From Escherichia phage AV106: a stretch of DNA of 50,922 nt. Of this stretch, positions 428 through 21,291 are shown piece after piece. The notes below the pieces were generated by a model that worked only from the letters and a program-made list of their open reading frames with translations, did not search any database and had not been told where the DNA came from. The number at the start of each line of letters is the position of its first letter. Position 1 is the first letter of the stretch. The stretch lies in sequence record OR352937.1. One strand, written 5' to 3'. The position numbers were made by a program, and so were the translations under genes.

Positions 428-2442
428 TCCGGGATATCCTCCATACCGAAGTCTTTGCGTGAAATAATATCTTCTTTCTTCTGGTTGCGTCTATGAGTAA
501 CACGTACCGGATGCGCTATATGATGAGAGTATTGCACGATCTTGATAGCGTTCTTCATTCCGATAAAGTAGCGACGCATTTTAGGATCTGACACGTGAGG
601 TAATACTCCTTTCGTTTTCCATAGCGTACCGCAGATCTTAGAGTCTGACTCAGGGAAGAACTTTTCATACGCCTTAAACTCATCACCCTCATCGTTAATA
701 AGCGTGTATTTGTATATCACACCTTTTTGGTTTTTGGTTAACGTAACCTCAAAATTCTTGACCTCGTACCAGTCATTCTTAGTGTACGCCTTACCGGATA
801 ACTTAAGGTTAGGATCGACAAGAGAAACATCGCAACAGCGACAGACTCGGGCCACAACATCATTCTCGGCACCGCACCCTTTAACAAGAATTTTCCCGGT
901 ACGTTCATCAACTTGGTCCTCGCAAATCTGAGAAGTCCAGAAATGATCGCAGCGTTCACCGTCGATAACGTTAACGCAACGGCGAGCATAGAAGCTATTT
1001 ACGCAACCACATTTAGGACACGTTTTCGGGTCTTTTCCGTTCTCGAATCGCTTCTGAAACTGAGCCTGCTCAAGTATAGGGTCAAAATAAAGCTGCCCCA
1101 ACTCGTCCATCGTACCAGCAAAATCCCATACCAGATGATCTTGCTTAACCATTCCTTCAGCAACCTGCCAGGATTTAAGAAGTCGCATACCCCTACCCAA
1201 AAGCTGAATCAGCAAGGTAAGAGATCCTATCTTGCGAAGTATTACACTAAAATCCCAATTTGGAACGTTAACGCCAGTAGTTAGCGCCATGACCTGAAAG
1301 GTATATTTAATTTTCCCAGCCCTCACATCATCAAGAATCTTCTTGCGCGTTTTAGTGTCTGTGTCGCCAGTAATAATTGCATATGTGCTTCCTGGTGGTA
1401 GTGCCGCAGCCGCCTCTTTGCAGTGACGCACCCCGGCGCATGTAATCAGAACTGCGTTACGCTCTTCAGCCTTTTTGGCAACCATTTGCATGATTCGCTG
1501 GGTAAGAGATTTATCATGAAGGATCTCATCTTCCATTGCCTTCATATCTTTCTCTGTGAAGTCCTGCACCCCATCCTCGCTTGATGCCTTAAATTTATCA
1601 AGATCGTAGTGAACTCCGTCCGTCGAGCCGAATATAGTCGGAACGACTGAGCCAAACTCAATAAGGTAGTTGGTGTCTATATCAGTAACGCGCTCACGCC
1701 AGAAGCCTAACGCCTTTGGATTCTCAACAAGAATAGGAACTACACCCCTAAATTCAGATCCAGTCATACCAAATATTCTAAGATCGTGACCGTGAACCTC
1801 TTTACAGCGTCGCATCATTTCCATGATTACGATCGTGTACTGACTGCGCTTAGTTCCAAGAAGAGGCTTTCCATCATTACCAATCAGAGGAGTATCACCG
1901 TCCATGATAATTTTCCCTTTCTCTCCCCGCATCTGTTCCATTGTTTCCTTTCCGTCTATGGCTTGCGCAAGGTCTTCCCAATCCACCTGGTGACATTCAT
2001 CTATCCCGATTACGTGAGGGACAAAATCAGCCAACTCATTATTTAAACCATTTGCAACAGTGCCCTCAGAGCCTACCACGATCGGGAAGTAGCAAGACTT
2101 GATTCCAAGTGACGCTGAGAATATAGAGTTAGTCACTCCGAAATTGTCGATCTCTTCACTATCCTGATCGACAATTTCACCCTGGCGTGCCAGCACAAGC
2201 ATTTTCAAGCCCATTTTTTGACACTGCTTTGCAACCATAGCAAAAATGATGGTCTTACCCGCCGATACTGACGCTTTAACAAAGAATGGATGCTCATAAT
2301 TTGATAGGCGTTTTGCGATCTCAGCATAAGCAACAACCTGGTACGGATACGGAACTACCTCACCAACAGTGAATCGTTCTTGAGTGCGTTTTATATAGTC
2401 CTCGCCAAGTAATGCGATTTGCTTTTTGATGTTAATTGTCAC
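424..2442 (-). CDS. SF2 DNA helicase (DECH box) with C-terminal Cys-rich zinc-ribbon-like region
   Basis: 672 aa; Walker A-like SAGKT, GIDECHQ (DExH box); C-terminal CPKCGC...CxxxxxxxxC cluster; GTG start. Confidence 0.7.
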   Translation of the reverse strand: MTINIKKQIALLGEDYIKRTQERFTVGEVVPYPYQVVAYAEIAKRLSNYEHPFFVKASVSAGKTIIFAMVAKQCQKMGLKMLVLARQGEIVDQDSEEIDNFGVTNSIFSASLGIKSCYFPIVVGSEGTVANGLNNELADFVPHVIGIDECHQVDWEDLAQAIDGKETMEQMRGEKGKIIMDGDTPLIGNDGKPLLGTKRSQYTIVIMEMMRRCKEVHGHDLRIFGMTGSEFRGVVPILVENPKALGFWRERVTDIDTNYLIEFGSVVPTIFGSTDGVHYDLDKFKASSEDGVQDFTEKDMKAMEDEILHDKSLTQRIMQMVAKKAEERNAVLITCAGVRHCKEAAAALPPGSTYAIITGDTDTKTRKKILDDVRAGKIKYTFQVMALTTGVNVPNWDFSVILRKIGSLTLLIQLLGRGMRLLKSWQVAEGMVKQDHLVWDFAGTMDELGQLYFDPILEQAQFQKRFENGKDPKTCPKCGCVNSFYARRCVNVIDGERCDHFWTSQICEDQVDERTGKILVKGCGAENDVVARVCRCCDVSLVDPNLKLSGKAYTKNDWYEVKNFEVTLTKNQKGVIYKYTLINDEGDEFKAYEKFFPESDSKICGTLWKTKGVLPHVSDPKMRRYFIGMKNAIKIVQYSHHIAHPVRVTHRRNQKKEDIISRKDFGMEDIPE

Positions 2443-9529: not shown

Positions 9530-10486
9530 ATGGGGCAAGGAATATACATAAATCTAAATGACGGTCGTCCAGCAATGGAGATAACCTCGGGACTTCGCGC
9601 CCCGTCATGGTGCGGACCAATACAAGCTGACGGGGTTGATTCATCTGGATCTGTTTTTGATTTTGGTCTGCAAATGAGTCCAGGATCTACCGCTTTTTGC
9701 CTTCCATCTCAGGCTATCTACATAGACGACATGGATTATATCCCGGAGGTGTATTATTTAACCAGCTTTCAGAAGGTTAATGATTCAACAGGGAGAATAA
9801 CGGTAGGTAATTTTAACGGGCACGGTGGAAGGAGGATGAGATTTTATGGCAACTGTTACGAGATCCTCCCCGCTCAGGCTGGTAATCAGGGCATACTCGT
9901 TAACGATTCAACTAACTTCGCGGCGATACCGAATAACGCAAGGTTAATGAGCGCTGCATTTGTTGGAGGTATTCAGGTTAACGGTCAAGCTCAGTTGCCA
10001 GTTCAGGGTGTTCCTTTCGGTATGTGGGATAACCCAAACGTAACACTGGAATCTGACGGGAATACAATATGGTGCAGAGACGCAAACTATAACGGTATTG
10101 ATGACGTTGGCGCGAGCGTATACGTTCAACTCGTAATATTTAATAACACCCCACCACCTCCCGGCCCGGGAATCACTATGAGCAATCCTGCTGGTCAGAT
10201 TGTTTTCTCAAGCGTTCGACGTCCTTTTGTTCTCGGCGGGACTATGGCGATAAATGACGGGTGGCAGTGGTGCGGTGGATTTTTCCCAATACTAAGAACA
10301 GGTACGATATGCAGAGTTACAGGTGGATATAATAACATTCGATACAAGGGAGTGTGTATGAGCGGCGGTAACGTGAGAAGCGCCCCCGGAACAAGAGTAG
10401 GTAATTATTCCACCCAAAGCGGAGCGCGATTCCCATTCAATATAAACATTTCAATGCCAATTCCTTTCACTCCGAACATGTATTAA
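9530..10486 (+). CDS. Hypothetical protein (possible fibre or receptor-associated)
   Basis: Start moved to ATG after RBS AAGGAG; Gly/Asn-rich with PPPPGPG linker and several Cys; bidirectional terminator follows. Confidence 0.4.
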   Translation: MGQGIYINLNDGRPAMEITSGLRAPSWCGPIQADGVDSSGSVFDFGLQMSPGSTAFCLPSQAIYIDDMDYIPEVYYLTSFQKVNDSTGRITVGNFNGHGGRRMRFYGNCYEILPAQAGNQGILVNDSTNFAAIPNNARLMSAAFVGGIQVNGQAQLPVQGVPFGMWDNPNVTLESDGNTIWCRDANYNGIDDVGASVYVQLVIFNNTPPPPGPGITMSNPAGQIVFSSVRRPFVLGGTMAINDGWQWCGGFFPILRTGTICRVTGGYNNIRYKGVCMSGGNVRSAPGTRVGNYSTQSGARFPFNINISMPIPFTPNMY

Positions 10487-10513
10487 AAAAAAGGGGCCAA
10501 TCGGCCCCTTTCT
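10487..10513. terminator. Bidirectional terminator between convergent genes
   Basis: AAAAAAAA-GGGGCC-aatc-GGCCCC-TTT. Confidence 0.65.
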
Positions 10514-10514
10514 G

Positions 10515-13500
10515 TTACCAGACACCAACAACCACTCGGCCCCCGTTAGGTAGGTTAACCGTGATCCCGTTATTGTTTATCTGAACCGTGTTATTGGTTC
10601 CGTTAAATGCGAAGTTGCCGTTATTTGCGTATAGACTACCCCTTACAATTGTGTTATGAAACTCTGAAGTACCTGACTTATTAACACCCCACCCCTGAGA
10701 TCCAGGTACGAAGTTATTTGACTGAATCCATTCCCCAATCATGGCGTTAGTAATAAATCCATCCTTGATGATCGCGCTACTTAGAATAACCTGGCCATTT
10801 TCAACAACGAAGGGGTACTGAGTCTGACCATTCATTCCATTCATGATGGCAAATCGTGATGCCTCAAACAAAATCTGCGCCTTAACCGCAGCTCCGGAAC
10901 CAATCAGAGACATAGCCATTCCTGCACTGTATTCTTGGCCGTTATACTTCAGACCGAGCTTGACGCCGTACATTGCACCAGTCGAATCCGCATTGCTCCA
11001 CGAATCAAGTTTTTGAGAAAGTGCCGCCTCATTATTCCCAAGTCTCGCGCTTAACGACAAGTCAGCTTGAGTTCTCGCCTCAGTCTCGTTTGCTATAGCC
11101 TCTCTAATATCAGTCAAACTTGCCTGGATATCATCACCAATCTCTGCCTTGAGTTGGTCAATTTCACGCGATAGCGCTCCAGTCTCAGTCGCTATAACTT
11201 CACGCAATTCGCTATTGCTTGCGCTAATCTGATCGTCAAAACTTGCCTTCAACTGCTCGATCGACGTCACTCGCGCCTGCGTCTCATCAGCAATAAGTTT
11301 CAGTGATTTCGTGTACTCAGCTTTTCGTTTTCCGTTCTCCTTCTTCATGTAGATCGCGTCTTTATCATTGGCGAGCGCGTTTTCTATTGCTGCCTCTGCG
11401 TTAGCTGCGTTCTGCGCCGCGTTGTCTGTTGCGTTATCAACAAGCCACTCGTAACCAGGCGAGTTTTCGATATCGACAGAAATCTCTCCGATGATATCGT
11501 CAACGTTTGTTGATGCCATACCTCTGACAAAATCAGTCCACTGAGACACGTTACCGATCCTGTCAACCGTCCTTACCCGATACCACACAATATTCCCTCC
11601 AGGCATCGGTGAGTGATAATACTCATGCTGCGGGTACGGAATCAAAGAAAGCAAACTTGCGTTATCCACTGTTCCATCCGGTGACTGTTGCAACTCTGTA
11701 TAGGCCGTATCTCCAGAACCATCAGAGAACCCCCATTTTGTACGGATGCCAAAAACAACATCATCCGTAGCTGTAAGGTTAATAGGTCGTCCCGGCTCAC
11801 CTTGTTTACCCGTCAGCGTCGCAGCTACGATATTTGACCATCCTGAAGTCGTACCTGAGCCAGCTACAGATCGAACGCGAACCTGATAGTTTCCAGCGTA
11901 AATCCCTTCAACGTAAACCTCTTTGTTTGCCGTCTGCGGAACGTTCTGCCAGTTGCCGTTATCCTTTCGCCACTGGACGTCATAGAAAACTGCGTACGGC
12001 ACTTTATCCCAGCTAACAATCATCGTTTCTACGCTCATACCCTGGACGATTCTCGACTCTGAGGACACCTGCACGTTTTCCGGTTTAGGGATCTGATCTG
12101 GCTCAACGATGCTCGTCGGTCGGTCGTCGATGTTAACTCCGTAATCAATCTCATCGTACTTGTTAGGATCGTACTCAACCGCCGTAATCTTGTAGGTAAA
12201 CTCTTCATCATCATCACCCTTGTCGATTTTGGTCACGACGTACTGCTGCAACGCAATGTCGGTACGGTCGATTGCGAATACCGTGTTAGGCTTCACAGGA
12301 AAGCCAAAGCCGATGTTAACCTCTATAGTCTTACCATCCGCACTAACACTTGAGATTGTGCGCTTCACGGGCTTACCATCGGGCTTATTTACGATAATAA
12401 AGTCACCTGCGCGAGCATCAACGCGGAACGGCAGGAAAATCTGACTACCGGATACTTCGAGCAAACGCCCTGACAGGTTCATCGTCAAGTTACTTGACCA
12501 GAAGTTATCAGCTATTGCTACAACATCTCCGATTGTCGGGATCATGCCCTCAAGTCCGGTAGCGAAGTTTACCGTAGTGCTGCGGAGGTTAGTTTTCAGA
12601 ATCCACCTCCCGCGTCGGTTGGCCTCGCTTCGACGTGTGCAACCGATCGCTGTAATACTCGTTACGTTGTTCCCAAAACGTAGAGTAGCCTCACGATCGA
12701 ATACTGGCTCAACGTCCTGCTGATACATGTTTTGTTCATCATCAAACATCACATTACACGTCGTGTACATGCTCTTTTCGCTTGCGAACGTGTAGGAGAA
12801 GTCACCATTAACCACGTTGTCGTTAGTGAAGATGTACGCAGGCTCACGCGGCCTGTCGATGATTACCGAAATGCTTTCGCCATTCCAAAAGCTCATACCT
12901 CGAAAGATTGAGCAAATATCTCGAATAACCTTGTAAGCGTCAGTCTGAGACTGGATTATCACATCGCAAAGGTAGCGAGGTTCCGTCCCGCCCTTCCCAT
13001 CAGGAACCATCTGATCGCAATATTGCGCAGCCTCGTAGAGCGCCCATTTATCGACAGCGATACCAAGCTCTTTCTGATCCAGGCCGTAACGCTGATTAAT
13101 CATCAGGTCATAAAGAACCCACGCCGGATTATTCGTCCATGCTTTTTTGAAAGTGCCATCCCAATTGCCGTTGTATGTTCGAGATTCTGGATCGTAGTTC
13201 GACGGAACGTTTACAATCTTCCAGCGCTTACGAATTGAAATCGTAGGTAACTGGTTGGGGAACATCTTCGAATCGAACTCTACGAAAAGAAGACCAGTCA
13301 GAGGATAACGGAATTTGGCATCAATCACCTCGGCATAGCTTTTCACCTGAATTGCATCAACGACATTCGAATCACTGGAGTCGGGAGTCTTTCGAACAAC
13401 TCTTAATATTACCTGATTGTTGAAGTTAGGAAGGTTTACGCGACGGCTTCGATCATAACCTGACATTGTTTTGCCTTCGATTACGTCAGTAAGAACAGTC

Positions 13501-16559: not shown

Positions 16560-19433
16560 TTATCCTCCTGTTTTTTCCTGAATGTAATTGTAAACCTCAC
16601 CGCCCTGTGAACAAGACTCTCGAATCATTTTTTTGAACATCATTTCTACGCCCTGAGAAATCCCTCTCGGATCTGAACCGTTGTCAACTTTAACCTCCAT
16701 ACCCCTAACATCAACGACCGTCCCGCCTGCTGACTGGTTCACTGCCTTCGGTGCGGATTTAGATGCGTTGAATCCAGAGGTTGCAACACTACCCGCAGCG
16801 GCAGCAAGCGAGGTAACAGCAACGCCTGAAGATAAAGACCTAAAACCAGAGACGGCAGGCGTAGGAGTTGCCTGTGATGCCGCAGAGTCGCTAGAGGTCA
16901 ATCCACTTGCAAAACTCCATGTCTTACCTCCCGTCATGCCTGAGATCGTATTGAAGATTACCATCTGAGCAATCATCTTGATAATCATGCTAATGATGTT
17001 TTTCGCAAAGTCCTCAAAATTTGCCTTACCTGTAGTCAGGAATTGGGTTATCATATCACTCATTCCGTTAAGTGAACTTGACGCGATATCATATACGTTA
17101 CCATACATATCCATTGCAGAATCGCCGTAATCTGCAAATGCGCTTTCAGCACCTGCCAACCAGTCAGCACGCTTGGCATCTTCCGCAGTATAGTAATCAT
17201 TTTGTGCCTTGATCATGTTCTGGAGTTTTTCATCTCCTTCGCTGCCACCTGCATTAATATAGTCAGTGGTGATCTTAGCCAGCTCCGCTTGTCGCTCCAT
17301 TTCTCTGGTGCTCATCCCGCGAGATGCGTTTAGCTGCTCTGTAGCTGCCGTCAAATCATTGACAAATTTCAGTGATTTATCGGTAAGGGCGTTCAACTGC
17401 TGCTGCTTAACAATCTGATCGCCAATCTCAGCCTTTTGTTTCGCAAGCTCTAAAACCTTCTCTTGGTTTGCAAGTAGTGCTTTTTCTTCCGCAGATAACT
17501 GACGCTTAGAACTAGCTTCTCGAAGAACAGCAATTGTAGCCTCAGTCGTAAACAGCGCCTTTCTCTGTGCTGATAGTTTTTGCCCGATCTCCTTGTGCTC
17601 CTGCAAAACCTTAAGCTGCGCTTTGAGTGAAATTAACTCCTTATCGAATTGCTCTGTAGGTGAGCGTAAAATTTTCGACTGCTTATTTCGTTCGCGGTTT
17701 CGCTTTTCGATCTCTTTAGCTTCTTCCTTGATAGCGTCCTTAGTTTCCTGGCTATACTGCTTTTCAAGAGTACGGCGCTGCTTCATTGCTTCAATGTATC
17801 CCATCTCACCTTTTTCAACACGGGCGTTGATGGCATCAAGCTCTGAAGCTAACTGATCGTAGTTGTCACGAGAACTTTTTACAATATTCTCCTGTTCCTT
17901 TAGTACATCAGCGCCGAAATCACTCATTCCAGGCAGAGACTGCGTAGCCTTAATTGCAGAGGCTATAAAGTTTGAGATGTACTCATCACCCTTCGCCAGA
18001 ATCATTTTTACCTGAATTACCGTACCCTGAACTACGTCAATAATCAGGTTTAATGCTCCTAGAGTATGATCCCCAACCCACCCCCACGCATCAGAGGCCC
18101 ACTGCTTAATATCGTTCCACATTTTTTCAAGAGGCGTGGCATTATCTGCGATCGACTTCATTCGCTTCTCCATAACTTCGGCGAATAATTTCGTTGCTTC
18201 AGACACTGCCTCAGTTTCACCCTTAGTACGGCTTAGCGTATCGATATATGTCAGTTGCCCTTTTTCTAAAAAGTTGTATTGCTCGTTAAGTTTAGCCAGA
18301 CCCTTTACAGGATCGCTTGCGATTTTATCGAACTCAGCGATGATTTTACTTGCTGATTTTCCGGTTGCTGTCGACCACTCAGCGGTAGCCTTTGTGATGT
18401 TCTGGATCTGCTCGCGGGTGTACTTACCAGAACTCGCCAACTCCGTTACAATCTCGCGAATACTCCCAATGGTTGAGTTGCTTGTCTGCGCGATCTTTTT
18501 AGACACTGAATCAAGATCTTCAGCCGTAACACCTGCATAACCGCCAGTCTCAATAAGTGCATTCTGCATATCAGTTATTGACTTGTAAGAGTCATAACCG
18601 GCTTTCGCAAGAAGACCTAAAGAGCCGACAAGAACACCAACACCAACTGTGACCGGATTAATATAGCTGAGCAATACCTTAAATGTATTCCCGATCCCGC
18701 CGAACGAGTCCTTGATTTGACCGCCTTGCTGGATGGCAACCATCCAAACTGGCATACCGGACGCAAGAGATGTAACGACGTCGGTAATCTGCGCGGGAAG
18801 CATTCGCATTGCCTGCCTATATTGCCCCGCGCTAATACCTGCGGCATTCATGGCTCGACCCTGCTCTTTCAGTTTTGCGATCAGTGGCGCTGCTTCATTT
18901 GATAGTCCAAGCTGAGCCGCTTTCAGTTCCATTAACTCTGCGTGAGTTTTGCCAATAGCGTTAACCTGACTGTTCAGGGAATCCATGAACGCTTTGTTTT
19001 TCGCTGCTGCCTGCTCTTTTGCTTTCGCTTCCTGCAATGCTGCCTGCCCCTCTTCAGTAAGCATGGCTCGGCTGCGAGCAAGTTTTGCATTTTGCATGTC
19101 CAGCATTTCACCCAAACGGAAAAATGTTTCATCTGGAACAACGCCCTTTTGCCAGAGTTTATCAAGCTGCTGAGATGCAATCTTCAGCCTTTCCATTTTT
19201 GATACTGTAGGATCGATTGCCTTTTCTACAGCCTCGTACTCTTTGCGCTGGCGCTTAAGTTGCTCTGCGTGTTCTTTAGCCTTCTGCTTTGCAACCTCGG
19301 CCTCATTGATTAAAGACCCCATAGAGTCAGCGGCTTGGTCGTTAGCTTTTGAAAACTCTTTCAATGACTTGACGGCGCGCTGCACTGTCGACACATCAAC
19401 GTCAAGCGATAGACCTGCTACCTTATCAACCAT
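16560..19433 (-). CDS. Tail tape measure protein
   Basis: 957 aa; long Ala/Gln/Lys-rich coiled-coil regions; Gly-rich hydrophobic segment; located after the G/GT chaperone pair. Confidence 0.85.
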
Positions 19434-19448
19434 ATAACCCCCTTATAT

Positions 19449-19473
19449 ACAAAAAAACCGCCAGACGGCGGCT
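19449..19473 (-). terminator. Terminator/attenuator directly upstream of the tape measure RBS
   Basis: Minus strand CCGCC-gtct-GGCGG followed by TTTTTT, then AAGGGGG RBS and ATG. Confidence 0.55.
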
Positions 19474-20107
19474 TAGTTATTCTGCTTAGCAATCATTTCA
19501 AGCGCTTTCGCTTCCATGATCCTAACGTCCTGCAATGCCAGTTCTTCATCTTCTATTTTATAGATTTTAAACAACATAGGCAAAACATTATAGTCAAGAC
19601 CATAAGCGCCAGCGCCTGAACTTCTCCACTGAGTGAGCATTGATGTAAAAACATTCCAAGCCTTCACCATTTCAGCGTCGCCAATTATCGTTTCAGGTTC
19701 CTCGTCTTCATAGTCTGAAAGACTTAAACCAACCGATCGCAATTGTTCCTCTGTTGGCGGCTTCTGATATAACAGATAGACCGCCCTTTTTAGTTTTTTG
19801 CGCGGTGTCCGGCGAGAGCCTTGATGTAAGTTGCTGTCAGGTTGTACGCTGCTGAAGGATAATACTGAACCAGTTTTCGCGCATTTTCTTCGTTAAATTC
19901 TTCTTCAAGGTTCCATCCTGACGCGATCTTGGTAATGAACTCGCTGTCGTTCATTTCTCCCTGGTTGGCATACATATCCTGAACTTCTTTACTGGAAAGG
20001 TGGCGTACAGTGAAAATGATCGTTGCATCTTCACCGTTAGGCATGGTGAAGGTGACTGGAAGTTTGAAGTCTGGAAGTTGACCAAGAACGAAATTAAATT
20101 TAGCCAT
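19473..20107 (-). CDS. Tail assembly chaperone G-T fusion made by programmed -1 frameshift
   Basis: Slippery A_AAA_AAC on the minus strand at about 19799..19793, ending just before the G stop codon; the -1 frame then reads K-L-K-R-A-V-Y-L-L-Y-Q-K-P-P-T-E-E-Q-L-R-S-V-G-L-S-L-S-D-Y and continues through ORF 19473..19742. Confidence 0.6.
19790..20107 (-). CDS. Tail assembly chaperone (lambda G-like)
   Basis: 105 aa; RBS CCAATCAGGAGA; ends in a slippery heptamer directly before its stop codon. Confidence 0.6.
   Translation of the reverse strand: MAKFNFVLGQLPDFKLPVTFTMPNGEDATIIFTVRHLSSKEVQDMYANQGEMNDSEFITKIASGWNLEEEFNEENARKLVQYYPSAAYNLTATYIKALAGHRAKN
19793..19799 (-). other. Programmed -1 ribosomal frameshift slippery site (A_AAA_AAC)
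   Basis: Canonical X_XXY_YYZ heptamer at the 3' end of the G-like ORF, in the position where tailed-phage G/GT frameshifts occur. Confidence 0.6.
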
Positions 20108-20189
20108 GATATTTCTCCTGATTGGTTAATGGCACTTTTTGTTAAAAGAGAATAGTGCAAACTTGATACGATGATTTTACAGAAATGAA

Positions 20190-20212
20190 TAAGGGGGCGC
20201 AAGCCCCCTTGT
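20190..20212 (-). terminator. Terminator-like hairpin after the major tail gene
   Basis: GGGGGC-gcaa-GCCCCC, with a U-rich tract on the minus strand. Confidence 0.5.
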
Positions 20213-20221
20213 GGATATGAT

Positions 20222-20890
20222 TTAGGCACCAGGTGATGCCAGAGCGGATGAAACGAAAGTGAAATCACCCTTCAGGGATACGGCGAGTTGTACCGTTTCC
20301 ATTTCGTTCACTTGCGTAGATGGAATGTCGTTAAAAGACAAGATGCCAGCCCACATGCGCATCTCGTTCGCTTTTGGAACATACATCCGAACCGCAGTTA
20401 CCTGACCAGAAGAATCCAGCTTACGCAGAATAGGGTAGATCGGGTTATCAAATTCGTGCGCGAATGTGTAAGTTAGCGAGATCGCAGATTTAAACGTTGG
20501 GATCTGCTGTTCTTTATCGTCGGACAAGCACTGATAAGTATAATACTGCTGCTCGCCGCCGTCCTGACCAATCTCCTGTACGCAAGGAATCTCAGTCCAG
20601 CCAGTAATTTTTGCAAAGCTCATCGTACCGCCAGCCGGGAAAACAAGAGTATCAGAAGTGTCAATCCCAGCGAGAGTGATGCTTGTTTCCTGAGCGTTAG
20701 TAACAATTAGCACTCGACTGACCATCTTTGCCCAGGTTGACTGAGTTACAATAACGTAATCGCCTTTTACTAAGTCGCCCTTAGATGCAACTGTAGCAAC
20801 AGGATTTTCTGCGTTAGTAATAGCGGTTGCCTCAATCTCTTCTCCGCGAGAGGTTTCCACGAAAATTTGCGCGCCATTTGGTAAGTGCAT
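20222..20890 (-). CDS. Major tail protein
   Basis: Start moved to internal ATG (MHLPNGAQ); position upstream of the chaperone pair; terminator downstream. Confidence 0.5.
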   Translation of the reverse strand: MHLPNGAQIFVETSRGEEIEATAITNAENPVATVASKGDLVKGDYVIVTQSTWAKMVSRVLIVTNAQETSITLAGIDTSDTLVFPAGGTMSFAKITGWTEIPCVQEIGQDGGEQQYYTYQCLSDDKEQQIPTFKSAISLTYTFAHEFDNPIYPILRKLDSSGQVTAVRMYVPKANEMRMWAGILSFNDIPSTQVNEMETVQLAVSLKGDFTFVSSALASPGA

Positions 20891-20892
20891 AA

Positions 20893-21291
20893 TTAAGTCT
20901 CCTTTGTGTCTACTCGTACTGTAAAGCGAACCGGAATCATCCACCCGCTTTCATGTTTAACAATTTGATGCACGATTGCACCCTCGAAAATATAACCAAC
21001 GTTAAGCATTTTACCATCTTTGAAAAAATCAGCAATCTCTTTTGCTTTCAATCTTGCTTCGTCAACTCCGGATCCTGGAGGGAACACTACTCCGATCTGA
21101 ACGATTGCGATGTAAGATTTACACTTTCTGTCAATGGATAGATAAAGCGTATCACCTTCAATGTAGTTGAACCTAAGCCACATCCCGCCATCCTTCGGCG
21201 GTATGAAATTTCTGTTTTCCATGTAGTGAGGAAAGTCTCTGTACTTTGATAGAAAAGCGGCTCGCGCCGCCGCTGATAACTCATAGTGCAT
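20893..21291 (-). CDS. Tail completion / tail terminator-like protein
   Basis: 132 aa; position between the head-tail joining genes and the major tail gene. Confidence 0.35.
   Translation of the reverse strand: MHYELSAAARAAFLSKYRDFPHYMENRNFIPPKDGGMWLRFNYIEGDTLYLSIDRKCKSYIAIVQIGVVFPPGSGVDEARLKAKEIADFFKDGKMLNVGYIFEGAIVHQIVKHESGWMIPVRFTVRVDTKET

Follow-up and report, generated by a model that had tools for sequence, protein, structure and literature searches.

A probable programmed -1 frameshift joining the tail assembly chaperone reading frames of Escherichia phage AV106

Background

The tail chaperones G and G-T of phage lambda were reportedly the subject of work by Levin, Hendrix and Casjens in 1993 and by Xu, Hendrix and Duda in 2004, 2013 and 2014. 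Recoding in tail chaperone genes is said to have been known since 1993, and the 2004 study (Xu et al.) is said to have described it as nearly universal in long-tailed phages. The G/G-T frameshift is conserved among long-tailed phages, and in lambda the G:GT ratio is about 30:1 (PMC5009743).

We discuss here the corresponding region of Escherichia phage AV106 (OR352937.1), a T1-like phage (Tunavirus) with 99.8% identity to Shigella phage phi2457T. The window, that is the whole stretch of DNA that was analysed, is 50,922 nucleotides long. An earlier sequence-only reading of the window had proposed that a programmed -1 frameshift joins the G and T reading frames, and this proposal is now supported by synteny, by Pfam and PHROG matches, by conservation of the slip site, by the absence of an independent start codon for the conserved linker and by homologues in which the two parts are annotated as a joined CDS. 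We put at about 90% the probability that a single initiation site yields two tail assembly chaperones through programmed -1 ribosomal frameshifting at A_AAA_AAC.

Organisation of the G and T reading frames

The genes are in the order tail tube, G, T, tape measure and gpM-like protein, and the features discussed are listed in Table 1. G is the product of standard translation, with its start ATG at 20107..20105 and its stop TAA at 19792..19790, and direct reading of the sequence gives ...CAC CGC GCA AAA AAC TAA for the 3' end of the ORF. Both the coordinates and the sequence first reported for this ORF hold.

The -1 frame has no stop codon from 100 nt 5' of the G stop to the TAA at 19475..19473, and the claim that it is open through the mechanically listed ORF 19473..19742 is thus confirmed. 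The first codon of the T part is CTA (19793..19791), in which the C of the heptamer is read for the second time. Reading of the -1 frame across the junction gives ...AKN|LKRAVYLLYQKPPTEEQLRSVGLSLSDYEDEEPE..., which includes the listed ORF, and the predicted G-T junction region is ...ALAGHRAKNLKR... The full G-T product, join(20107..19793, 19793..19473) on the minus strand, would have 211 aa and a mass of 24.1 kDa.

Both halves are above the Pfam gathering score, G with 127.2 bits against Phage_TAC_4 (cut-off 21.1) and the extension with 47.2 bits against DUF1799 (cut-off 26). The PHROG 17368 profile has 213 positions, of which G matches 1-107 and the extension 109-212, and as it spans both halves, fused products must already have been deposited. 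With regard to the neighbouring genes, a tape measure gene had been placed next to G and T, and the Pfam matches to TMP_2 and Tape_meas_lam_C bear this out. The true start of the tail tube gene is probably internal to the ORF given in Table 1, as relatives (RefSeq Sfin-1 and T1) have a 669-nt CDS annotated. The terminator-like element after T is also annotated as a terminator in T1, Stevie and Scapp.

Table 1. Features of the G/T region of AV106 and its neighbours (positions in the window)
Feature	Coordinates	Strand	Details
Tail tube (major tail) gene	20222..20944	-	Directly 5' of G; Pfam Phage_tail_3, E=2e-70
Shine-Dalgarno sequence AGGAG	20115..20119	-	7 nt 5' of G ATG; direct sequence reading
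G ORF, predicted tail assembly (tape measure) chaperone	19790..20107	-	105 aa, 11.9 kDa; Pfam PF08748 Phage_TAC_4, E=5.5e-37, full length
Slippery heptamer A_AAA_AAC	19793..19799	-	X_XXY_YYZ phase; adjoins G stop
T part, -1 frame extension	19473..19793	-	106 codons, ending at TAA 19475..19473; Pfam PF08809 DUF1799, E=2.7e-12
Candidate stimulatory hairpin	19756..19785	-	Begins 7 nt 3' of heptamer; dG -15.4 kcal/mol
TTG opening mechanically listed ORF 19473..19742	19740..19742	-	GAGG upstream; TTA in T1, start not conserved
Terminator-like hairpin and U-run	19455..19474	-	Overlaps T stop, between T and tape measure gene
Tape measure gene	16560..19433	-	957 aa, directly 3' of G/T; Pfam TMP_2, E=1.9e-74, and Tape_meas_lam_C, E=4e-25

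Proposed mechanism

We propose that ribosomes initiate at the ATG at 20107 and that the majority would stop at the UAA at 19792..19790, releasing G. A minority of them, probably less than a few percent, would slip one base back, with tRNA-Lys (on AAA) and tRNA-Asn (on AAC) re-pairing with AAA AAA. The shifted ribosomes would then read CUA (Leu) and 105 more codons to end at 19475..19473, giving a 211-aa G-T product with the junction ...A-K-N-L-K-R... The abutting 0-frame stop probably assists through slow filling of the A site, the "shifty stop" effect, and the hairpin at 19785..19756 probably assists in the AV106 lineage.

If the roles are as in lambda, the tape measure protein (957 aa) would be coated by G and by the corresponding part of G-T, the tail tube protein would be recruited by the T part (DUF1799), and neither chaperone would remain in the virion. 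The sequence of AV106 and its comparison with relatives show the arrangement and phase of the ORFs, that both the site and the -1 peptide are conserved, and that there is no alternative start. From these we infer that slippage occurs and at what likely rate, what the stop and the hairpin contribute, and that the proteins act as chaperones. We found no junction peptide and no frameshift reporter assay for AV106 or T1.

Conservation of the slip site

The heptamer alone is no more than would be expected by chance, as AAAAAAC is present in 20 copies in the window against 15.5 expected, and its significance comes from its phase, position and conservation. Of 110 distinct related G-T regions, 106 have T in the -1 frame, and 101 combine this arrangement with A_AAA_AAC directly 5' of the stop. 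Other relatives have G_GGA_AAC, A_AAG or A_AAA_G at the same position, with the stop one codon farther downstream in the tetramer variants, and an in-phase slip site is kept down to about 30% protein identity. The apparent exceptions to the -1 arrangement (L040, L042, L072 and L073) are contigs with several indels or homopolymer-length errors, and we reject them as genuine in-frame fusions or +1 arrangements.

The conservation is also seen at the codon level. All 44 of the Drexlerviridae coding sequences compared have the same AAA, AAC and CTA codons (K, N and L) at the site, and zero synonymous diversity is found in just 6% of the informative codons of the gene. For codons 102-112 the synonymous diversity is 0.20, as against a gene mean of 0.41. 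The codon before Lys may be GCA, GTA, GAA or CAA (A, V, E or Q), with A as the third base throughout. Judged by these codons, the slip site is conserved beyond the need of the amino acids that it encodes. The G and T frames overlap by only 7 nt in 10 of the unique sequences and by 13 nt in 5 others, and such short overlaps pin the shift to the motif.

The frames could also be joined at the level of transcription, if RNA polymerase were to add an A in the A6 run of a subpopulation of the mRNAs, and the junction would then be ...A-K-K-L-K-R... The site is indeed a homopolymer, A6 in AV106 and A7 in the group with GAA AAA AAC, and there is a draft contig (L073) in which an extra A fuses the frames. 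However L073 has a second frame break and resembles a homopolymer sequencing error, and the relatives with G_GGA_AAC, A_AAG or A_AAA_G have runs of only 3-4 A at this position. Conservation extends to the X_XXY_YYZ phase, the final C and the A in the third position of the preceding codon, but not to the length of the run. Productive slippage by bacterial RNA polymerase usually needs a run of some 9 or more bases, or else a special hairpin upstream, and we think it most improbable that it accounts for the joining of G and T.

Translation of the linker

In the family alignment there is no gap across the junction, with R102, L106 and G127 invariant and K104 and P118 nearly so. In the -1 frame, 93 of 98 unique sequences lack an ATG, GTG or TTG 5' of the site, and in the remaining 5 the upstream start codon that is present has no Shine-Dalgarno sequence. 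Linker codons Y111, Y114, K116, P118 and T119 have synonymous diversity of 0.44-0.73 while the peptide is conserved, which argues that the linker is translated. The comparison thus points to a conserved linker for which no independent start is available.

These observations bear directly on whether G and T might be separate proteins made without recoding, T being an 89-aa protein initiated at the TTG at 19742. That TTG has an SD-like GAGG (19751..19748) five bases upstream in AV106 and its closest relatives, and most GenBank records have two distinct ORFs annotated. However the TTG is replaced by TTA in T1 and is missing in many relatives, and the first possible start after the site wanders from codon 8 to codon 51. 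In addition the stretch of 17 codons from the G stop to the TTG is conserved as -1 frame protein with its synonymous sites varying, and has no start codon upstream of it, and the 10 sequences with a frame overlap of just 7 nt also speak against separate initiation. Some free T could in principle be made from the GAGG-preceded TTG in AV106, but there is very little chance that separate initiation takes the place of recoding.

Candidate stimulators of the frameshift

The sequence-only reading described A_AAA_AAC at 19799..19793 as a canonical slippery site. The description is apt for its pattern, but not for its strength, as in E. coli reporters the heptamer gave 0.16% without a stimulator (Sharma 2014, supplementary table), 0.19% with the IS911 stimulators and 0.74% with the IS3 pseudoknot, and A_AAA_AAG gave 39% (Sharma 2014). 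A_AAA_AAC is thus intrinsically weak in E. coli, and the yield of G-T could be far below the roughly 3% of lambda.

It had been suggested that a stimulatory structure be looked for downstream, and there is a candidate hairpin with outer stem GGCGGU/GCCGCC, inner stem UCUG/CAGA and loop UUAUAU. Its stability is significant against dinucleotide shuffles (z=-4.3) and against synonymous recoding (z=-3.2, p=0.002), and it is found in most Drexlerviridae, with the stem codons, rare AGG and CGG among them, nearly fixed. However some Drexlerviridae (the L032 group, L070 and L071) have the heptamer but lack the hairpin, so that the hairpin cannot be essential, and in most distant relatives it is not significant. 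There is also no compensatory covariation within the conserved helix. The covariation score did exceed that of all 500 shuffles, but an equally high score was obtained when the 3' partners were slid by -1, and the sole double changes are in divergent sequences that lose the remainder of the helix. We therefore reject covariation as support for the hairpin.

With regard to other elements, there is no conserved upstream SD-like stimulator, the Gly codon 12-14 nt upstream of the site taking all four third bases, and an Rfam scan of 19300..20300 gave sub-threshold chance matches only, with no curated frameshift element.

The abutting stop allows a different account of the slip itself, with the same frameshift and the same products. 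The slip would be post-translocational, with tRNA-Asn in the P site, tRNA-Lys in the E site and UAA in an empty A site, and slow recognition by release factor would allow the -1 re-pairing, so that the G-T:G ratio would be set by termination efficiency and not by tandem slippage in the A and P sites. The concept of the shifty stop is established (Weiss et al. 1987, cited in PMC5009743), and the 0-frame stop adjoins the heptamer in the 101 unique sequences referred to above and comes one codon later in the tetramer variants. The 0.74% obtained with a strong pseudoknot and no abutting stop also suggests that another stimulator is needed. However the adjacency may be forced by coding, as the last base of the heptamer, C, joins with the TA or TG of the stop codon to give a -1 frame Leu codon that is invariant, and position alone is thus no proof of a kinetic role. 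It is also clear from lambda, with its site 15 nt before the stop, that adjacency is no general requirement. We regard a post-translocational slip as possible but on the whole doubtful.

More tentatively still, we suggest that the Phage_TAC_4/DUF1799 family may have a fixed cassette, comprising the weak heptamer, the abutting 0-frame stop and, in Drexlerviridae, the hairpin 7 nt downstream, kept in position by rare Arg codons, in which stop and hairpin would jointly set the G-T:G ratio. If this is so the ratio would be sensitive to the termination capacity of the host (release factor levels, growth state), a sensitivity that is undescribed for lambda-type G/G-T sites. It is of some mechanistic interest that a heptamer that is weak in reporters is yet kept in more than 100 distinct phage sequences, and its constant pairing with an abutting stop, and often with a hairpin, makes this a convenient natural system for work on the tuning of weak sites.

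Protein family and homologues

The fused protein is matched by 1,145 phage records, nearly all as two pieces in different frames. A search for homologous proteins with the fused 211-aa query gave 2 matches, both of them T-only fragments, the family profile found no match among PDB sequences, and in NCBIfam there is no model that covers the G-T fusion. The virion proteomics table for Sfin-1 includes the tape measure and tail tube proteins and does not list the G and T ORFs, as expected for chaperones.

No similarity to lambda G-T was detectable by hhalign with the family profile (probability 0.4%, E=0.17), the alignment being limited to a 13-residue motif (GLDYNVLPMLF vs GLTYTVLSLFF), and on that probability we reject homology to lambda G/T. 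By profile comparison the Phage_TAC_4/DUF1799 pair is an organisational analogue of lambda G/T and not a demonstrable homologue, and the functional roles that we give to the proteins thus rest on analogy.

Annotation

We take the frameshift in AV106 to be real, but of a kind that is already known and is quite ordinary. The T1 RefSeq reference, Sfin-1, phi2457T, LHE71 and many other Tunavirus records give G and T as distinct ORFs, in many cases under the erroneous name "tail length tape measure protein", and the 211-aa G-T product is absent from all Tunavirus records that we inspected. The two-ORF annotation in T1 and the nearest relatives is an annotation gap only. The practical value of the analysis is for annotation, and we suggest that the joined CDS, join(20107..19793, 19793..19473) on the minus strand, be added.

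Comparison with known systems

As in lambda, AV106 has two overlapping ORFs between the major tail and tape measure genes, and the analogy would extend to an abundant short product and a rare long fusion, neither expected in virions. The two differ in the heptamer, which is A_AAA_AAC in AV106 and G_GGA_AAG in lambda, in the stop, which abuts the heptamer in AV106 and is 15 nt beyond the site in lambda, and in the AV106 proteins being of Pfam families Phage_TAC_4 and DUF1799.

True homologues are found nearer to AV106. Citrobacter phage Stevie (KM236241, Tlsvirus), which belongs to the same family as AV106, has a G that is 54% identical to that of AV106, a slip site GTA AAA AAC TAA with the same heptamer and the same hairpin, and a joined frameshift CDS at 10144..10775. 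Serratia phage Scapp, at 25% identity, also has a joined CDS, named "Tape Measure Chaperone Frameshift Product", but its slip site is the tetramer A_AAG and not the heptamer. L006 and L049, which are Webervirus relatives, also differ from AV106, with A_AAA_G at this site. The genome announcements for Stevie, Klebsiella phage Skenny and K. aerogenes phage Solomon mention the frameshift.

The same heptamer, in the same host, is used by IS1 for insA-insB', a proven case of -1 frameshifting in which the low efficiency fits a rare fusion protein (Sharma 2014). The IS1 product is however a transposase, with unrelated proteins and biology, and IS1 has no established stimulator, whereas AV106 and most of its relatives have the abutting stop and the hairpin. 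E. coli dnaX (gamma/tau) resembles AV106 in having a lysine-run heptamer and a hairpin a few nucleotides downstream. In dnaX, however, the heptamer is A_AAA_AAG, the shift is about 50% and gives the shorter product, and there is an upstream SD-like element, whereas AV106 has the weak AAC version, giving the longer product, and no such element is conserved at its site.

The G and T reading frames

A programmed -1 frameshift joining G to T was proposed in the sequence-only reading, and it is supported by a conserved, phased slip site and by a translated linker that is start-less. We put at about 0.9 our confidence that ribosomes slip into the -1 frame at 19799..19793 and so make a G-T protein of 211 aa (24.1 kDa). 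G ends ...GGA CAC CGC GCA AAA AAC TAA, no stop interrupts the -1 frame between a point 100 nt 5' of the G stop and the TAA at 19475..19473, and the product after the slip would read ...HRAKN-LKRAVYLLYQKPPTEEQLRSVGLSLSDYEDEEPE...KQNN; the listed ORF 19473..19742 is the portion of the -1 frame after its first TTG. All coordinates of that reading are exact: the G ORF at 19790..20107 with its end GCA AAA AAC TAA, the phased heptamer A_AAA_AAC abutting the stop, and the -1 frame running open through ORF 19473..19742. There are 20 copies of AAAAAAC in the window where 15.5 are expected, so the heptamer alone is not unusual and its significance must come from context.

Features of the G/G-T region (window coordinates)
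Feature	Position	Strand	Details
G ORF	ATG 20107..20105, stop 19792..19790	minus	105 aa, 11.9 kDa
SD AGGAG before G	20119..20115	minus	read from sequence
Slippery heptamer AAAAAAC	19799..19793	minus	X_XXY_YYZ phase
Candidate hairpin	19785..19756	minus	arms GGCGGU/GCCGCC, inner stem UCUG/CAGA, starts 7 nt after heptamer
Synonymous-diversity trough in T	19544..19583	minus	codons about 176-189
Sigma-70-like match	19583..19555		TTGCCT-17-TAAAAT, 9 of 12
13-residue motif in T	19571..19603		G-T residues 169-181
Terminator-like hairpin, U-run	20191..20210	minus	follows tail tube gene
Terminator-like hairpin, U-run	19455..19474	minus	overlaps T stop, precedes tape measure gene

The 1-kb stretch around G/G-T has 99.8% identity to Shigella phage phi2457T and at least 95% identity with 28 phage records, with 36 more at 80-95%. 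Most of these records come from phages of Escherichia and Shigella; the ones that were inspected belong to Tunavirus (Drexlerviridae), T1 among them, which marks the window, at sequence level, as a T1-like siphophage.

The whole of G is covered by a match to Pfam Phage_TAC_4 (E=5.5e-37), and the T extension matches DUF1799 (E=2.7e-12). In the 213-position profile of PHROG 17368, G covers positions 1-107 and the extension 109-212, and as the profile spans both halves, fused products of this family have been deposited already. The tail tube protein gene lies 5' of G (Phage_tail_3, E=2e-70), and 3' of G/T are the genes for a 957-aa tape measure protein and for a gpM-like minor tail protein. The position is canonical for a G/G-T pair, and TMP_2 and Tape_meas_lam_C matches just downstream bear out the earlier statement that the tape measure gene follows. 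The two flanking terminator-like hairpins have equivalents that the T1, Stevie and Scapp records list as terminators, and the chaperone genes may be a separately attenuated transcription unit inside the late operon.

Conservation of the slip site

The fused G-T protein matched 1,145 phage records by tblastn, nearly all in two pieces, that is in two reading frames. From IMG/VR and GenBank we collected 130 loci (given L-numbers), which comprise 110 distinct G-T regions with protein identity to the window down to about 30%; the end-of-G motif and the frame of T were assigned by separate tblastn of the G half and the T half. T is in the -1 frame for every region in the tabulated motif classes, and a 0-frame stop lies directly 3' of the heptamer in 101 of the 110 sequences.

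Motifs at the end of G in the collected loci
Motif	Unique regions	Phages
A_AAA_AAC TAA	56	Drexlerviridae, SECphi4 (Dhillonvirus), Aeromonas pAEv1818, others
A_AAA_AAC TGA	45	HK639-like group, others
A_AAA_G TC TAA	2	Webervirus (L006, L049)
G_GGA_AAC TGA	1	Ralstonia phage (L046)
A_AAG TAT TAA	1	Serratia phage Scapp (L047)
A_AAG CGC TAA	1	Klebsiella phage vB_KPAJ1 (L048)

The codon preceding Lys encodes A, V, E or Q and its third base is always A. The -1 frame is open just 7 nt before the G stop in 10 unique sequences and 13 nt before it in 5 more, so that in these the shift is possible only on the motif itself. The AAA, AAC and CTA codons are invariant in a set of 44 different coding sequences from Drexlerviridae, whose G-T proteins are 52-100% identical to that of the window, and just 6% of the informative codons of the gene have zero synonymous diversity; the 7-codon sliding mean has its minimum, 0.20, at codons 102-112, where the gene as a whole averages 0.41. 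It is very improbable that the fusion arises by transcriptional slippage within the A6 run, as relatives with G_GGA_AAC or A_AAG at the same place have only 3-4 A, and it is the phase and the final C that are conserved, not the run length.

Four contigs (L040, L042, L072 and L073) were considered as counter-examples and rejected, as they have several indels or homopolymer-length differences. L073 (IMGVR_UViG_2619619144_000009, about 1228..1236) has one extra A, putting G and T in frame, and the A-run of L042 (about 1804) is one A shorter; both are likely to be sequencing errors since both contigs have other frame breaks.

Synonymous diversity dips a second time inside T (0.17-0.21; gene mean 0.41), over the sequence TTG CCT ATG TTG TTT AAA ATC TAT AAA ATA GAA GAT GAA GAA, where 37 of 40 sequences keep ATA, a rare codon for Ile, and 44 of 44 keep GAT. 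This trough coincides with a sigma-70-like match, and may represent an internal promoter for the tape measure gene or a different constraint on the nucleotide sequence. With lambda G-T, hhalign aligns just one segment, a motif of 13 residues in the most conserved DUF1799 block, YGLDYNVLPMLFK in the window and SGLTYTVLSLFFS in lambda gpT (L131), with 46% identity and a non-significant E=0.17; it might be a shared tail tube protein binding motif.

Translation of the linker

The family alignment is gap-free over the junction, with R102, L106 and G127 invariant and K104 and P118 nearly so. At Y111, Y114, K116, P118 and T119 of the linker the amino acid is kept while the codon varies (diversity 0.44-0.73), and by this measure the linker is under purifying selection as a translated peptide. 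From the -1 frame stop that precedes the slip site down to the site itself, 93 of 98 unique sequences lack any ATG, GTG or TTG in that frame, and the 5 that do have such a codon show no SD-like sequence. The first candidate start 3' of the shift varies in position from codon 8 to codon 51. In the window it is possible to envisage two separate genes, translation of T beginning from the TTG at 19742, which has GAGG five bases 5'; T1 has TTA at the same codon. That reading is highly unlikely, as the linker is conserved yet start-less, and from these comparisons independent initiation cannot explain the conserved region, even if TTG 19742 could conceivably give a small amount of free T protein in the window phage.

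Mechanism and downstream hairpin

The best-supported mechanism for the frameshift is a tandem -1 slip in which tRNA-Lys and tRNA-Asn would move from AAA AAC to AAA AAA, with CUA decoded next. Two context features, the abutting stop codon and a downstream hairpin, may raise or tune the rate. A stop directly after the heptamer is the arrangement reportedly described as a 'shifty stop' by Weiss et al. in 1987. A post-translocation 'shifty stop' slip would be a mechanistic variant of the same frameshift, not separable here from tandem A/P slippage, and we regard it as possible but rather unlikely. The adjacency may itself be forced by coding, since the invariant Leu codon of the -1 frame consists of the C of the heptamer and the first two bases of the stop, TA or TG. 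No upstream SD-like stimulator is conserved in the 44 Drexlerviridae coding sequences, and no Rfam family matches the frameshift region.

A_AAA_AAC is a weak heptamer in E. coli: AAAAAAC gave 0.163% with no stimulator, 0.189% with the IS911 stimulators and 0.739% with the IS3 pseudoknot, the figures for AAAAAAG being 0.29%, 4.3% and 39% (Sharma et al. 2014). A chaperone pair needs a low shift rate, as the lambda G:GT ratio is about 30:1 (PMC5009743).

The suggestion that a stimulatory structure be sought 3' of the heptamer led to a candidate hairpin (dG -15.4 kcal/mol; z=-4.3 against dinucleotide shuffles). Compared with 500 sequences in which these 16 codons were recoded synonymously according to the codon usage of the phage itself, the hairpin has z=-3.2 (p=0.002), and an equivalent is found in most other Drexlerviridae (z between -2.7 and -5.5). 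The stem depends on AGG or CGG for Arg, which, with 30 and 18 occurrences out of 423, are the two least used for Arg in the window, and its codons are nearly fixed (GCG 40/44, CTG 43/44, CAG 36/39, CCG 42/42); adjacent non-stem codons vary freely. However, a pair-by-pair count of the conserved helix found invariant pairs or single-sided changes and no compensatory changes, its covariation score is equalled by a register-shifted control, and the hairpin is not significant in most of the distant relatives and is missing in the L032 group, L070 and L071, all of which retain the heptamer. It is thus a probable lineage-specific stimulator, neither essential nor proven.

The Drexlerviridae-like IMG/VR contigs L032, L033 and L035 (and L066-L068) have the same LKRAVYLFYQKPPT linker as the window. 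In this sublineage CGC GCC replaces CGG GCG, both synonymous positions of the 5' arm being changed together, which abolishes the hairpin (dG -2.7, z=+1.2) and keeps A_AAA_AAC TAA. It is a natural 'hairpin knock-out' open to experimental comparison.

Comparison with known systems and annotation

The frameshift is already known: T1-like phages have homologous sites that have been annotated and published, and in general terms the principle is textbook. Citrobacter phage Stevie, a Tlsvirus of the Drexlerviridae that is identical to locus L026, has GTA AAA AAC TAA with the same hairpin and carries a joined 'tape measure chaperone' CDS (10144..10775), the Skenny and Solomon genome announcements state the same frameshift, and one CDS of Serratia phage Scapp bears the label 'Tape Measure Chaperone Frameshift Product'. 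Separate ORFs are annotated in T1 (NC_005833), Sfin-1, LHE71, tonnikala, JLBYU26, Penguinator and HK639, and there is no joined G-T CDS in any Tunavirus record inspected. RefSeq often names the chaperone ORFs 'tail length tape measure protein', as in T1 (NC_005833, 18872..19506), Sfin-1 (NC_047998) and other Tunavirus, and the T1 record gives gp39 as a fragment of 55 codons that begins at an internal ATG. In the Sfin-1 paper both ORFs are hypothetical 'phage proteins' and neither is in the virion proteomics table, which is consistent with non-structural chaperones. The value of our analysis lies in annotation correction for Tunavirus genomes, with a small mechanistic addition in the combination of weak heptamer, abutting stop and lineage-specific hairpin.

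Lambda was the first phage in which the G/G-T frameshift was shown (Levin et al. 1993), and its conservation among long-tailed phages was found by Xu et al. (2004); the review PMC5009743 summarises the subject. Similarity of this G-T family to lambda G-T is not detectable (hhalign probability 0.4%), so the window G-T is, as far as sequence comparison goes, an analogue of lambda G-T in organisation, a relation that Xu et al. reported in many phages. The two systems differ in that the lambda slip site is 15 nt before its stop, whereas in the window family the stop abuts the heptamer.
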